Of a stretch of DNA of 64,000 nucleotides, positions 3,686 to 62,979 are shown one piece after another. A program made the position numbers and the translations under genes. A model generated the notes under the pieces. It saw nothing but the letters and a program-made list of their open reading frames with translations, did not search any database and was not told where the DNA came from. Position 1 is the first letter of the stretch, and each line of letters begins with the position of its first letter. This DNA comes from a virus: IMG/VR virus record IMGVR_UViG_3300032315_000647, positions 32,001 to 96,000 of that record; one strand, 5' to 3'.

Positions 3686-3984
3686 GCAATCAATTTTTCT
3701 ACACTCGTAAAGAGTTGAAGAGCGGTACACCTGAGAATCCTGTGTACAATGTGTTTCGTGATAGCTTCAATGTGAACAAGGTGATACGCACCGTAGCTAT
3801 TGAAGATGGTAGAGTGATGGTGCTTCTGGATGATTTGCATGAGCGTGCACAAGATGTACCTGACATGGATGCTAAGACTAATAAGATTAAGGGGTATAAG
3901 CGTCAAAGGAACACCTTCCAGAGTGAGATATATTTGGAGGGAGAGGATGTCGAAAGGTTTTACATAACAACATCTATTAATTAA
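3682..3984 (+). CDS. hypothetical protein
   Basis: 100-aa ORF, translationally coupled on both sides. Confidence 0.75.
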   Translation: MSNQFFYTRKELKSGTPENPVYNVFRDSFNVNKVIRTVAIEDGRVMVLLDDLHERAQDVPDMDAKTNKIKGYKRQRNTFQSEIYLEGEDVERFYITTSIN

Positions 3985-4979
3985 TGAGACCTATTTTCTT
4001 CTACTGGGATGGTGGGATAAGCAATAGTAGGATGAAAGTCTTACAAGATTGTATGTATTCTACAAGAGTGCACAATCCTGAATGTCCTATTGTATTAGTG
4101 AGCAATAGTATATCAAGCAGTTCGTTTGATGACACTTATAGAATAAGTGTTATGAAATGGGACAGATCATTGATAATGCAATCTCCATTTCCAAAGGATA
4201 AGATTGATCTCTATCTGGATGGTGATAGGTGTATTACAGGTTATAGAGAGCTTTCTGATTTAATAAGATTGGCAGTTCTTTATAGATATGGTGGTTCCTA
4301 CATAGATACAGACGATCTTTGCATCAAACCTATTCCAGTAGAAGAAAATATTATTTGTCGTTCGTACGATCCTCACACTGCACATTACAATCTCGTAACT
4401 CCTGAAGATTGTATTCCTGGAGTGTACAGAGAAATACGTGGGTATGATCACATCAACTTCTTTCCAAGAAACGACTGTTGGTTAAACTTTGTACCAAAGC
4501 ATCCTTTGATACGTGATATATTAAGCAACCCTAAACTAAATGGGATAAACAAACCTGTTTATATTGGGGACGGATTCTCATGGCAATCTCTTACATTAGA
4601 GGCATGTATGAAATACATCATGCACATAAATGACATATTCAGAACATCTCTTACACTTCTCTATCTATTTGAGGATTTTGTGTCAGCAAGTTCTTTCTGG
4701 GACAGGTGTCATCATGGAGGAGAAATGTGTGATTTGTACAATGAAATATTTCCTGATCTTAAGGAATATGAATGGGGATTCTATAAGTGCACTAAAGACG
4801 TAGCAGAGAGATTCCTAGAAACAGTGATAGACAAATATCCTCATCTGTCACACATGTGGCTTCATAGAAAGGATGAGAATCCAGAATGGATGTTAGAAGA
4901 CCTAGATGCTGAAGGTAAGTATGCTGTATCTACATGGATTTATAAAATTCAAAAAGACAAAATAAAGAGCTATATATGA
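3984..4979 (+). CDS. DXD glycosyltransferase (GT32/Och1-like)
   Basis: IFFYW.G N-terminus; SDLIRLAVLYRYGGSYIDTD. Confidence 0.8.
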   Translation: MRPIFFYWDGGISNSRMKVLQDCMYSTRVHNPECPIVLVSNSISSSSFDDTYRISVMKWDRSLIMQSPFPKDKIDLYLDGDRCITGYRELSDLIRLAVLYRYGGSYIDTDDLCIKPIPVEENIICRSYDPHTAHYNLVTPEDCIPGVYREIRGYDHINFFPRNDCWLNFVPKHPLIRDILSNPKLNGINKPVYIGDGFSWQSLTLEACMKYIMHINDIFRTSLTLLYLFEDFVSASSFWDRCHHGGEMCDLYNEIFPDLKEYEWGFYKCTKDVAERFLETVIDKYPHLSHMWLHRKDENPEWMLEDLDAEGKYAVSTWIYKIQKDKIKSYI

Positions 4980-5668
4980 TTTCCGTATTGACACTAACAT
5001 ACAAGAGACCTCATCTTTTAGAAGAAGCTATTGAATCATTTCTTAGACAATACACCACTCATCCAAAGGAAATGGTTATCATAAACGATAACAAAGATGT
5101 AGACTATGTTTACAATCATCCTGATGTAACAATCATCAATTGTAAAGAAAGGTTCTCATCTGTATCTAAAAAACTTCAATGGGGATTTAGTCAGTGTAAG
5201 TATGATTACATTTACAGACTGGACGATGATGATTTGTTAACAGAAAATGGGTTACAGAAAGCTTGTGATTACATCATCAACAATCCAGGATATGATATAT
5301 ACAGAGCTTCTGGTTTCTATTTCTTTGTGAATAATAAACTAGATGGGTGGACAACTAGTATCAATAATGGAAACATCTATAGCAAAAGCTTTGTTGAAAG
5401 AATTGAGTTTCCTGATACATGTATAGGAGAAGATGCAGACATCACGTTCCATAAAGGAGGAACTTGGTGGGAACCAAAAGAGAAAGATGCAACAATGATC
5501 TACCGTTGGGGAATGGGAACACTTCACATATCAGGGATGGGGAATCAACCTAATGACATCATCTTAAACAAGGCTGATAAAGTGTTAGACAATAGAGTGG
5601 GTACAATAACGCTACATCCAAAGTTTTTATCAGATTATTATGAACAAATAAAAAAAGCCCCTATTTAG
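4976..5668 (+). CDS. GT2-family glycosyltransferase
   Basis: ISVLTLTYKR..L.EAIES; YIYRLDDDD; GED. Confidence 0.85.
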   Translation: MISVLTLTYKRPHLLEEAIESFLRQYTTHPKEMVIINDNKDVDYVYNHPDVTIINCKERFSSVSKKLQWGFSQCKYDYIYRLDDDDLLTENGLQKACDYIINNPGYDIYRASGFYFFVNNKLDGWTTSINNGNIYSKSFVERIEFPDTCIGEDADITFHKGGTWWEPKEKDATMIYRWGMGTLHISGMGNQPNDIILNKADKVLDNRVGTITLHPKFLSDYYEQIKKAPI

Positions 5669-5681
5669 AGGCTTTTCTTTT
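5651..5681. terminator. bidirectional intrinsic terminator between convergent operons
   Basis: AAAAAAGCC-cctatttaga-GGCTTTTCTTTT at the + / - convergence point. Confidence 0.7.
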
Positions 5682-5683
5682 AT

Positions 5684-5757
5684 ATTGCTTCCAAAGAATA
5701 GCTGTTCTAGACCAACTATTCACCCTGTTGTGCATCGTTGAGAGGCATGTGAAGCTA
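5684..5757 (-). ncRNA. candidate structured RNA in the late-transcript 3' UTR
   Basis: outer stem GCUUC/GAAGC enclosing hairpin UGC-CUCUCAACGAU-GCA and hairpin GAAUAGUUG/CAGCUAUUC. Confidence 0.35.
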
Positions 5758-5758
5758 A

Positions 5759-61701: not shown

Positions 61702-61729
61702 TTAGGATATCGTTTGATTAAAATTGCAG

Positions 61730-61805
61730 TAAAGATATAAAAAAGTTTCTATATTTTCCAAATTATTTTAACCAAATAAGTTATTGCAAATAACCAATTT
61801 AGTTA
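61730..61805 (-). promoter_or_regulatory. promoter with tandem perfect TAAC-N7-GTTA boxes
   Basis: minus TTTG (61759-62), N21, TATCTTTA (61730-37); boxes 61769-61783 and 61791-61805. Confidence 0.65.
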
Positions 61806-61841
61806 TAAAATAAAACTCCCCAGGGTAGAAACCCCAGGGAG
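61806..61841 (-). terminator. intrinsic terminator
   Basis: CUCCCUGGGG-UUUCUA-CCCUGGGGAG followed by UUUUAUUUU. Confidence 0.75.
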
Positions 61842-61869
61842 AAACTCTGAAAACCAACAAACAGAGTTT
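61842..61869 (-). ncRNA. hairpin displaying UUUGUUGGUUUU loop (candidate 3'-UTR sRNA)
   Basis: perfect 8-bp stem AAACUCUG/CAGAGUUU, 12-nt loop complementary to AAAACCAACAAA. Confidence 0.45.
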
Positions 61870-61881
61870 TTATATTTTATT

Positions 61882-62979
61882 TTAACATTGTGCAGTGCTC
61901 AAACCAATGATTACACCTGTTGATGAATTTATATCCCAGTTTGAACCATTCATGAACACATTTGCATAACCGACTAATGTCAGTAGTGGCGCACTGTTAT
62001 TAGTGTAAACTGTACATCCTGCACCAAATGTGATAGTAGAACAATATGAATATAGAGTTCTGTTGTTTATTGCTGCATCATCACATGCTTCTGCATAATC
62101 TTGTCCTACTCCACTTCCAGTAAATTCTTTCAGAGTGGGTTCTGTAGTAGTGGTAGTAGTTGTGGATGAAGCAACTGAACAATCACCTGCAGTGGTACAA
62201 TTTGTTCCCAAAGGTGTAAGAACATGACTTGGAACAGGTCCAACAGCACAGCTAGTTCCGAAAGAAACTGTAATACCAGCGGTGTATTCAGCTTGAACAC
62301 ACAGATAGATTGTTGATTCTACAGGAACAACAGTACATACAGGCACTTCTGTACTACCTCCACATTCATAATAAGAGACTGAAATATCCACACTATCTGT
62401 ATTTTGAATGCTGTAACACAAACAAGGTGCTGCTGTAGTAGTTGATGTTGTTGTACTGCTTGTAGAAGTGGTAGTGCTACTTGTAGAAGTTGTACTACTA
62501 GTTGTTGTAGAAGTGGTGCTACTAGTAGTGCTAGTAGTTGTACTACTTGTAGAAGTGGTTGTACTGTCTATTATTGTAGTGCTTGTCGTAGTGGTGGTTA
62601 AAGGTATGATTGTAGAAGTGGTAGTTGTAGTTGTGTTGCTAATTGGTGTAGTTGTTGTTGTTGTTGTAGGTAAAAGAGTTGTACTAGTGCTTGTAGTAGT
62701 TGTTGTACCTATAGGAACAGTTGTAGTTGTGCTAGTTGTACAACAGTTTTCTATTGTTTGTTGTAGAATATCAATCTGTTCTTGTAAAGAACAAATTTGT
62801 TCATCTACCTTTTGAAGCGCAACAGTTACTGTGTCACAAGTTCGTATGTTTGTACAGGGCAGGTTGGGCCCGCTGTATGTAACATAATCTGTAGGAATCG
62901 GTTGTGCATTGCAAGGATCTCCACAATGAGATGAGGATCCTCCTTGTGAACAACACGGATTTTGTGGAAGAAATACCAT
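61882..62979 (-). CDS. Cys-rich virion protein with poly-Thr/Ser tract
   Basis: Y.GPNL.CT.I N-domain shared with 20122-25527; ~100-aa T/S tract. Confidence 0.75.
   Translation of the reverse strand: MVFLPQNPCCSQGGSSSHCGDPCNAQPIPTDYVTYSGPNLPCTNIRTCDTVTVALQKVDEQICSLQEQIDILQQTIENCCTTSTTTTVPIGTTTTTSTSTTLLPTTTTTTTPISNTTTTTTSTIIPLTTTTTSTTIIDSTTTSTSSTTTSTTSSTTSTTTSSTTSTSSTTTSTSSTTTSTTTAAPCLCYSIQNTDSVDISVSYYECGGSTEVPVCTVVPVESTIYLCVQAEYTAGITVSFGTSCAVGPVPSHVLTPLGTNCTTAGDCSVASSTTTTTTTEPTLKEFTGSGVGQDYAEACDDAAINNRTLYSYCSTITFGAGCTVYTNNSAPLLTLVGYANVFMNGSNWDINSSTGVIIGLSTAQC

Follow-up and report, generated by a model that had tools for sequence, protein, structure and literature searches.

What does a phage decorate when it encodes glycosyltransferases (GTs), a sulfotransferase and methyltransferases of its own? 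This question is raised by a stretch of 64,000 nucleotides (IMG/VR record IMGVR_UViG_3300032315_000647, termed the window below), which spans positions 32001-96000 within a viral record of 114,745 bp that is complete and has direct terminal repeats. A sequence-only reading of the window had suggested that the phage decorates its own virion by one integrated "mucin-like shield". Comparison of genomes speaks strongly for glycosylation of the structural proteins by the phage itself, and this part of the suggestion stood. The single integrated system did not: enzymes and candidate acceptors fall into three modules with different distributions, and the complete genome of one relative (G007) lacks the sulfotransferase cassette and keeps the rest. 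From the sequences we judge it fairly probable that phage enzymes modify the phage's own structural proteins as three genetically separable enzyme-acceptor modules, called A, B and C here. Virion glycosylation is favoured because a TibC/Aah domain is protein-directed, because a GT-A enzyme co-varies with poly-Thr, and because a third cassette travels with one type of fibre. What we observe are enzyme families, acceptor-like sequences and their co-occurrence; the features are collected in Table 1.

Six of the about seven GT domains that had been named were confirmed, while an additional GT-A domain in a fusion protein was not. Both methyltransferases, one in the fusion protein and one of the FkbM family, were recovered. 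Most enzymes had been placed inside the structural region, which holds only in part: the GT32 and GT2 genes stand at the close of the replication arm, and the fusion and FkbM genes are on the opposite strand, between lysis-like and fibre genes.

Pfam detected a Crassvirus muzzle, ring 1 and ring 2 protein and, just beyond the window edge, the major capsid protein gene, so the phage is crAss-like. The families PF23898, PF25731, PF24228 and PF25702 (crAss capsid, muzzle, ring 1 and ring 2) were all above the Pfam cut-off, and a cargo protein with an SLT domain was also found. In IMG/VR we found 449 relatives of the ring-2 protein, of which the best 80 have 91-95% identity, and the lineage is a very abundant, freshwater crAss-like one. 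Our survey of poly-Thr tracts and gene slots covered 80 relatives; the close whole-genome comparison covered G006, G007 and G008.

A GT-A glycosyltransferase co-varies with poly-Thr tails

The 338-aa protein of module A had been described as HPAT-like. It is a glycosyltransferase with a GT-A fold, but the HPAT label could not be kept. The protein belongs to phrog_4417, which is annotated as "unknown function". Its AlphaFold2 model (pLDDT 86) was assigned by Foldseek to the GT-A fold of GT8/GT6 type, with a probability of 1.00 to WbbM, glycogenin, LgtC, UGGT and GTA/GTB and template modelling (TM) scores of only 0.40-0.45. Within the family the DSD motif is invariant, and C107-D108-S109-D110 is invariant or nearly so. 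No Pfam family matched at E<=0.01, including HPAT PF23452 (plant HPAT/SGT1, GT95/GT96). In the Atlas, 10% of the members of a neighbouring cluster have PF23452, which is a lead at most, and HPAT membership was rejected.

The gene is located on the minus strand between the gene for a 48-aa poly-Thr protein and those for two poly-Thr proteins of about 90 aa. The family comprises 2726 homolog clusters of constant length and is present in every near-complete relative. Homologs also occur in 77 cultured phages; the eight that we inspected all have poly-Thr proteins beside the gene, and in total the GT-A gene adjoined poly-Thr proteins in 9/9 contexts inspected. In Enterococcus phage phiFL1A (25260-26824) the major tail protein ends in a T/S tail of 25 residues; its gene and the tail chaperone genes flank the inserted GT-A gene. 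In Lactobacillus phage iLp84 both the capsid and the tail proteins bear poly-Thr tails, and there is a further poly-Thr protein of 125 aa. Further poly-Thr proteins beside the GT-A gene are orf13 of Lactococcus phage 1706, orf50 of bIL285, the capsid protein of Enterococcus phage 4995_1, and proteins of Semele, ENFP1 (APTTV repeats) and Chryseobacterium phage MA9V-3. In phiFL1A and seven other cultured phages, the phrog_4417 homolog immediately follows a capsid or tail-tube gene, and the protein encoded by that gene carries a poly-Thr tail.

As a control we used five tail proteins with 50-60% identity to that of phiFL1A, whose genes directly precede the chaperone gene with no GT-A gene in between. 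All five end at the same point and have no tail, and no T/S run was found in the control loci. The background rate, estimated from unrelated viral loci that carry a sulfotransferase gene, was a T/S run in 1/21 loci. Thus, the profiling of enzymes against T/S tracts that had been put forward as a check was positive for GT-A (tracts in 9/9 cases with the gene versus 0/5 without it); the co-variation of the 338-aa enzyme with poly-Thr tails holds among very distant phages. Virion glycosylation in Firmicutes phages could readily be tested in the cultured carriers of phrog_4417.

Translation showed poly-Thr tracts in all five open reading frames (ORFs) named for them, which start at 8652, 8937, 10296, 51932 and 61882. 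A sixth poly-Thr protein is encoded beyond the window beside the capsid genes; it has 391 aa, and its C-terminal poly-Thr tail is conserved in every relative. In the proteome 41 runs of at least five Thr were observed, while 1.2 were expected from within-protein shuffles. The runs are coded by mixed ACA, ACT and ACC codons, and the tracts are selected at the protein level. They occur throughout the lineage in the 80 relatives, and their lengths vary rapidly. The tracts of the muzzle protein are shorter in relatives (39-172 residues), and relatives have one copy of the 90-aa protein with a shorter tail. At the position of the 365-aa gene the 80 relatives encode hypervariable products of 83-1808 aa, mostly with T tracts.

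The 48-aa protein shares the N-terminal anchor motif M.IPSR.IGW.. with a 194-aa protein (10457-11041, minus strand). Relatives have a single homolog of this pair of 215-382 aa, one of which holds GTS collagen repeats. Another N-terminal motif, the Cys-rich Y.GPNL.CT.IRT.D....LQK, is common to the 365-aa protein (aa 20-75) and the 1801-aa fibre of module B (aa 25-95), and is probably a virion-attachment domain. Cys-rich modules are interspersed with the poly-Thr linkers in the muzzle protein (aa 1625-1690 and 1870-2030) and in the 365-aa protein (aa 185-365); from their sequence these modules look like displayed binding domains on mucin-like stalks.

According to the proposed mechanism of module A, the 338-aa GT-A would put the first sugar on Thr of the poly-Thr tracts. 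It would act on the extended part of the muzzle protein, on the 365-aa fibre, on the small proteins of 48-91 aa and, in the capsid region, on the C-terminal tail of the 391-aa protein. The GT2 enzyme, plus the GT32-like enzyme in this genome, may extend the glycan. Homologs of GT2 were found in G006-G008 with 30-62% identity. These three near-complete relatives have no homolog of the GT32-like gene, which is accessory.

A TibC/Aah fusion accompanies collagen-like fibres

The fusion protein of module B has 1140 aa, and no family was assigned to aa ~115-600. A further GT-A domain had been suggested here. For aa 115-450, phmmer against PDB gave chance-level matches, and hhalign against the 338-aa family a probability of 0.3%; a language-model (Atlas) score of 0.85 is a weak lead and nothing more. 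The C-terminal domain (aa 811-1138), which had been called TibC-like, matched the NCBIfam equivalog TIGR04414, a model of Aah/TibC autotransporter O-heptosyltransferases, with 276.8 bits (cut-off 200 bits, E 2.6e-82). A phmmer search identified Escherichia coli TibC (PDB 4rb4) with E 2.7e-50 and about 40% identity, and the cysteines of the iron finger align (CNGCW...WCPEHKGTDRQFEC in the fusion, CYGCW...WCPRHKNTDRQFEC in TibC). Because of the matches to TibC 4rb4 and TIGR04414, the C-terminus can be described more specifically than as "GT9"; judged by sequence, it is a member of the protein-directed O-heptosyltransferase family. Enzymes of the TibC/Aah family glycosylate proteins in the cytoplasm (AIDA-I/TibA).

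The GTS/GSS fibre, which had been described as having about 1300 aa, was confirmed; it has 1801 aa. The match to the Pfam family Collagen (PF01391) has E 5e-165, and 422 G-X-Y triplets were counted (GTS x198, GSS x77), the longest run comprising 376. The repeats are atypical for collagen in having about 1% Pro. Downstream of them a solenoid is built of 15-aa repeats of the GGxxNxASGxxSxVx type, followed by a conserved knob, and the C-terminal 100 aa match PHROG minor tail and virion structural proteins (E 5e-24). The DNA of the collagen repeats is open on both strands, with an antisense ORF of 1035 aa at 21671-24778 (plus strand).

No autotransporter was found in the genome; the recurrent neighbour of TibC is the GTS/GSS collagen-like fibre. 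The fusion is kept in all near-complete relatives (55-74% identity in G006-G008), each of which has one or two GTS/GSS collagen-like proteins, and fusion and GTS/GSS fibres occur together in all four complete genomes of the lineage. Beyond this lineage, a 1227-aa fusion that ends in a TibC/Aah domain and adjoins GTS/GSS repeat DNA is encoded by Microcystis phage Mel-JY01. The deposited annotation of this phage may be wrong there, since its genes run on the other strand and not on that of the GTS/GSS reading. In a 735-kb uncultured phage the TibC/Aah domain adjoins a GTS/GSS protein and a GT4 protein, and the contig G024 has both a TibC-type enzyme and a GTS/GSS collagen-like gene. With the G024 enzyme as query, a T/S-type collagen gene was found within 10 kb in 27/80 TibC-bearing viral loci, a number for which there is no unbiased background set. 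For this reason, and because the two genes lie far apart in the G024 group, we rate the association as moderate: several independent phage lineages have the TibC/Aah fusion together with GTS/GSS collagen-like fibres. In module B the TibC/Aah domain would O-glycosylate Ser/Thr of the collagen-like GTS/GSS fibre, the GT4 domain would extend the glycan, and the methyltransferase domain of the fusion together with the FkbM enzyme would methylate it.

A fibre-linked cassette of a GT9-like enzyme, a sulfotransferase and a kinase

The 293-aa protein of module C had been read as GT9-like, in agreement with its AlphaFold2 model (pLDDT 83) and the Foldseek matches to 3tov (E 1.5e-11), WaaF 1psw (3.9e-9), WaaC and TibC (3.9e-7). 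The assignment was made by fold search alone. No Pfam family matched at E<=0.01 (PF01075 included), NCBIfam gave only a sub-threshold match to RfaQ (E 0.007), and the family profile had 0 matches at E<=1 among PDB sequences.

The sulfotransferase was likewise confirmed. Its motifs for binding of 3'-phosphoadenosine 5'-phosphosulfate (PAPS) are intact, PRxGST (5'-phosphosulfate-binding motif, 5'-PSB) and RDLRD..S (3'-phosphate-binding motif, 3'-PB; RDxRD..S), and are invariant in 14 homologs. The closest relatives in PDB are TPST1/2 (E 4e-8 to 1e-5), mainly over residues 5-123, the PAPS-binding N-terminal half. The best NCBIfam match is NoeE, the sulfotransferase for Nod-factor fucose (E 3e-8, residues 4-237, far below the cut-off). 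As both matches are weak, the sulfate acceptor could be tyrosine or a sugar. The neighbouring protein, named as kinase for adenosine 5'-phosphosulfate (APS), is a P-loop kinase that passed the Pfam cut-off, with a match that spans only positions 4-101 of the 152 in the profile. It remained below the NCBIfam cut-off (62 vs 127 bits), where the top five matches are all adenylyl-sulfate kinase models, all below their cut-offs. The motifs GSGKT, DGD (IDGD) and SxVYPY (LVYPY) are present.

We found 21 viral contigs of very different size and gene content with a sulfotransferase 57-66% identical to that of the window. The GT9-like gene directly precedes the sulfotransferase gene in all 20 contigs with upstream sequence. 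A large Gly-rich fibre with a homologous solenoid domain is encoded upstream in 14 of the 17 contigs that have more than 2 kb of upstream sequence, and a kinase homolog follows the sulfotransferase in 11/21 contigs. In one small contig, split homologs of the fusion are located beside the GT9-like/sulfotransferase cassette. The small protein encoded between fibre and cassette is also found ahead of the GT9-like gene elsewhere among the contigs. It was rejected as a conserved acceptor: the alignment of these proteins of 102-115 aa consists of two weakly related subfamilies and has no telling motif.

The cassette and the solenoid fibre domain occur together in G000, G006 and G008. G007 has no cassette and keeps poly-Thr tracts, collagen fibres, GT-A and the TibC fusion; its fibres gave a BLAST match to the fibre of the window over 104 aa only, and none to the solenoid region. 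Any sulfation is therefore tied to the type of fibre and not to poly-Thr, and co-variation of the sulfotransferase with T/S tracts, which had also been expected, was not observed (a tract in only 1/21 sulfotransferase loci). In module C the GT9-like enzyme and the sulfotransferase would add a sulfated group to the beta-solenoid, the receptor-binding end of the fibre, with PAPS supplied by the APS-kinase-like enzyme, and the cassette may be swapped between phages along with the fibre.

Table 1. Enzymes, candidate acceptors and structural genes in the window
Feature	Position	Strand	Basis and description
GT32-like DXD glycosyltransferase	3984-4979	+	Pfam PF04488, E 1.5e-11
GT2 glycosyltransferase	4976-5668	+	Pfam PF00535, E 4.2e-15
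90-aa protein, candidate acceptor	8652-8924	-	48-aa conserved N-terminal domain ending CCNP, then poly-Thr/Ser tail
91-aa paralogue, candidate acceptor	8937-9212	-	four poly-Thr runs; directly downstream of GT-A gene
338-aa GT-A glycosyltransferase, proposed poly-Thr O-glycosyltransferase	9215-10231	-	phrog_4417, PHROG E 4.9e-54
48-aa protein	10296-10442	-	TTTTTTT tail (translation)
1140-aa fusion	12794-16216	+	S-adenosylmethionine (SAM) methyltransferase aa 18-106; GT4/Glycos_transf_1 aa 619-755; TibC/Aah aa 811-1138 (Pfam, NCBIfam)
FkbM-family methyltransferase	16213-16881	+	Pfam PF05050, E 2e-8; NCBIfam TIGR01444, 56.3 bits vs 37.7 cut-off
154-aa P-loop kinase, APS-kinase-like; proposed PAPS supply	16856-17320	-	Pfam PF01583, 50.9 bits vs 21.1 cut-off
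271-aa sulfotransferase	17317-18132	-	Pfam PF13469 (Sulfotransfer_3), E 7.6e-19, 69.3 bits vs 27-bit cut-off
293-aa GT9-fold (heptosyltransferase-like) enzyme	18133-19014	-	AlphaFold2 and Foldseek
115-aa small protein and 234-aa Laminin_G_3 protein	19049-20112	-	between fibre and enzyme cassette; Pfam PF13385; PHROG virion structural protein
1801-aa tail fibre	20122-25527	-	Cys-rich N-terminal anchor, ~1290 aa GTS/GSS collagen-like, C-terminal beta-solenoid, knob
Crassvirus muzzle, 2112 aa	51932-58270	-	Pfam PF25731, E 1e-29
Muzzle C-terminal extension	aa ~1484-2045 of 51932-58270	-	poly-Thr linkers (269 residues in T/S runs) alternating with small Cys-rich modules
Crassvirus ring 1	58267-59238	-	Pfam
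Crassvirus ring 2	59723-60451	-	Pfam
365-aa fibre-like protein	61882-62979	-	N-terminal anchor motif, coiled coil, poly-Thr linker, Cys-rich C-terminal module

Targets of the enzymes

Taken together, we infer the enzyme-acceptor pairings, the sugars, the sulfate acceptor and the downstream roles, with modification presumed to take place in the host cytoplasm prior to assembly. The ecological roles put forward in the sequence-only reading, such as luring of the SusCD systems of Bacteroidota by mimicry of polysaccharides, protease resistance, or less sticking and grazing, are conjectural. Several points weigh against modification of the virion. The case consists of sequence, predicted folds and gene neighbourhood, and not of the chemistry of virion proteins. 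The small poly-Thr proteins have no PHROG match and are no more than putative virion components. For module B, the TibC and collagen genes are more than 40 kb apart in the G024-like lineage, and ADP-heptose would have to be supplied by the host. To our knowledge, the substrates of the TibC family are so far beta-helices of autotransporters and not collagen repeats. For module C, the GT9 fold of the 293-aa protein fits heptosyltransferases for lipopolysaccharide (LPS) as well as TibC, and the nearest characterised relatives of the sulfotransferase point two ways, to tyrosine and to sugar. Finally, linkage of a receptor-binding gene to an enzyme gene is equally expected if the enzyme alters the receptor of the host.

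A more far-reaching version would combine three statements: that a mobile fibre cassette sulfates the receptor-binding end of the fibre (on sugar or Tyr) in unrelated aquatic phages, that TibC/Aah glycosylates the collagen fibre, and that phrog_4417 is a general O-glycosyltransferase for poly-Thr in crAss-like phages and in siphophages and myophages of Firmicutes. We consider this combination tentative and on the doubtful side.

Remodelling of the host LPS core, capsule or receptor by the enzymes, especially by the GT9-like/sulfotransferase/kinase cassette and GT2/GT32, would block superinfection or keep progeny off debris. The enzymes would then adjoin the fibre gene because they must match the receptor of the fibre; in phage T5 the receptor-masking llp gene is located beside the gene for the receptor-binding pb5. 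The LPS heptosyltransferases WaaC and WaaF among the top fold matches of the 293-aa protein, the polysaccharide-building role of most members of the GT2, GT4 and GT32 families, and the carbohydrate sulfotransferase NoeE as best NCBIfam match are all in line with such a function. We nevertheless regard it as unlikely. The TibC/Aah domain comes from a protein-directed family, the co-variation of GT-A with poly-Thr on capsid and tail proteins would be left without explanation, and in siphophages of Gram-positive hosts the GT-A gene sits in an operon for tail or head morphogenesis, between the genes for the major tail protein and the chaperones. Furthermore, the annotated genes included no membrane anchors, flippases or polymerases.

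Alternatively, the sulfotransferase may act directly on Tyr (or Ser/Thr) of the fibre with no glycan involved, while the GT9-like enzyme acts independently. Profile searches gave human TPST1/2 as the closest solved relatives, with the E values stated above, and many of the solenoid repeats contain Tyr (e.g., GNYATVSGG and GYYSTISGG). These repeats are without the acidic context that is typical of TPST sites. The match to TPST is largely confined to the N-terminal half, where PAPS is bound, whereas the sugar sulfotransferase NoeE matches residues 4-237 with similar significance, and the sulfotransferase gene is always paired with a glycosyltransferase gene. Direct sulfation is thus improbable in our view.

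The poly-Thr tracts and GTS repeats might also be plain, unmodified linkers or spacers, and the enzyme genes unrelated morons. Thr-rich linkers are indeed widespread without proof of glycosylation, and tract length shifts fast among relatives. This is very hard to reconcile with GT-A and tail being present or absent together (9/9 vs 0/5), given a background of about 1/21 loci, and we give it little credence.

Hypermodification of the phage DNA by the glycosyltransferases in order to evade restriction, as in T4 or the metavirome 5-hydroxymethylcytosine (5hmC) type, is least credible of all, even though DNA is a frequent target of phage glycosyltransferases (Pyle et al., 10.1101/2023.12.21.572611). 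Among the large proteins of the replication arm Pfam detected dUTPase, UDG, RNR, DnaB, RecA and PhoH, but no enzyme for 5hmC or 5-hydroxymethyluracil (5hmU), no TET/JBP, no DNA cytosine methyltransferase and no deoxynucleoside monophosphate (dNMP) hydroxymethylase. We know of no DNA role for TibC/Aah, the sulfotransferase or the APS kinase, and the enzymes co-vary with features of proteins.

Comparison with known systems

In mycobacteriophages (Che8, Corndog, Myrna), the phage's own enzymes add glycans to C-terminal extensions on the capsid and tail-tube subunits (Freeman et al. 2023, described in PMC12619734). As far as that description goes, the shared features are phage-encoded glycosyltransferases, gene positions near structural genes and C-terminal extensions as acceptors. 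The enzymes of the window differ from them in being a phrog_4417 GT-A, a TibC/Aah fusion and a GT9-like enzyme, and the candidate acceptors in being long homopolymeric poly-Thr linkers, a collagen-like fibre and a solenoid domain. A sulfotransferase, a kinase and methyltransferases are added in our case, and this crAss-like phage probably infects a Gram-negative host. In the literature, virion glycosylation by phage enzymes was found to be demonstrated only for mycobacteriophages. In the literature searched we found no direct report on TibC-like enzymes of phages, fibre-linked phage sulfotransferases or glycosylation of poly-Thr on capsids, which is not proof of their absence.

The C-terminus of the fusion resembles TibC/AAH (BAHT) of E. 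coli in passing the equivalog cut-off, in its identity of about 40% and in the iron-finger cysteines. As for TibC/AAH with TibA/AIDA-I, a cytoplasmic enzyme is encoded near a repetitive, Ser/Thr-rich fibrous substrate. Unlike TibC/AAH, the enzyme is phage-encoded, is fused to a methyltransferase and GT4, and has no autotransporter partner; its candidate substrate is a G-T-S collagen or a 15-aa solenoid repeat instead of the 19-aa AIDA repeat.

BclA of Bacillus anthracis carries rhamnose-anthrose oligosaccharides with methylated sugars on GXT repeats, and Mimivirus has glycosylated collagen and fibrils. The fibre described here is likewise a Pro-poor, Thr-rich G-X-Y surface filament, accompanied by its own glycosyltransferases and sugar methyltransferases, enzymes that we liken by description. 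BclA is exported onto the spore and Mimivirus infects eukaryotes, whereas this filament is a phage tail fibre. With Nod-factor NoeE/NodH and NodPQ, TPST and RaxST, the cassette shares a PAPS-dependent sulfotransferase with 5'-PSB and 3'-PB; it is encoded with a kinase that is proposed to supply PAPS. It differs from NoeE and TPST in that the similarity is weak (E ~1e-8, far below NCBIfam cut-offs) and in being a tail-fibre cassette of phages.

Host and neighbouring genes

Identification of the host via cultured relatives failed. The sole cultured relative found via the capsid or the ring-1 protein was the cyanophage Lbo-JY46 of Leptolyngbya, with about 26% identity, and the binning of metagenome-assembled genomes (MAGs) is mixed. 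Capsid genes with 84-95% identity are present on contigs binned in MAGs of Sediminibacterium (two MAGs), Cytophagales, "Bacteroidetes" and Kapaibacterium. Other near-identical capsid genes are on contigs in Aquiluna and clostridial MAGs, and the binning is thus mostly, not solely, with Bacteroidota. A Sediminibacterium MAG includes a 112-kb contig with a near-identical capsid gene. These capsid-bearing contigs in MAGs of several phyla are probably whole phage genomes that were mis-binned or co-binned with their host. A freshwater Bacteroidota host is plausible.

The 4256-aa ORF at 30916-43686 (minus strand) has no Pfam family at E<=0.01 and is flanked by the cargo proteins and the fibre region, the position at which crAss-like phages encode a giant virion RNA polymerase. 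Close relatives with a capsid of 97% identity have counterparts of this ORF that are only 26-42% identical to it. A neighbouring 1757-aa protein (25641-30914, minus strand) shows a weak N-terminal match to GNAT acetyltransferases (E ~1e-3) and 28-29% identity to the counterparts in close relatives. Between the ring 2 and fibre genes a 416-aa protein is encoded (60451-61701, minus strand), which matches the PHROG "DNA repair exonuclease" (E 1.5e-43) and weakly Metallophos, with 72-75% identity in relatives. Directly ahead of the GT32/GT2 pair there are genes for a staphylococcal-nuclease homolog, a RyR-domain protein and a conserved 100-aa protein (2977-3984, plus strand). A DUF5856 protein with the PHROG name "starvation-inducible regulator" (8233-8637, minus strand) adjoins the poly-Thr proteins.

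Implications

The principle of virion glycosylation by phage enzymes is known from mycobacteriophages. What would be new, as judged from the genes, are the enzyme families, the types of acceptors, possible sulfation and the setting, which is an abundant crAss-like lineage and a family of so far "unknown function" that many cultured Firmicutes phages have as well. If our interpretation is true, virion glycosylation is far wider than known, as it would extend to an abundant freshwater crAss-like lineage (449 ring-protein relatives; more than 2,700 GT-A clusters) and to cultured phages of Enterococcus, Lactococcus, Lactobacillus and Staphylococcus with relevance for dairy and therapy. The TibC/Aah and phrog_4417 families and the sulfotransferase cassette would be newly linked to phages, and a sulfated fibre would be the first sulfated phage virion. 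For phrog_4417 a function is proposed from sequence, with predictions that are testable in phages already cultured. In mycobacteriophages virion glycosylation is reported to alter recognition by antibodies. Our data suggest fibre charge and glycan coats as exchangeable traits of phages, with possible effects on adsorption, on stability and on recognition by immune systems or grazers.

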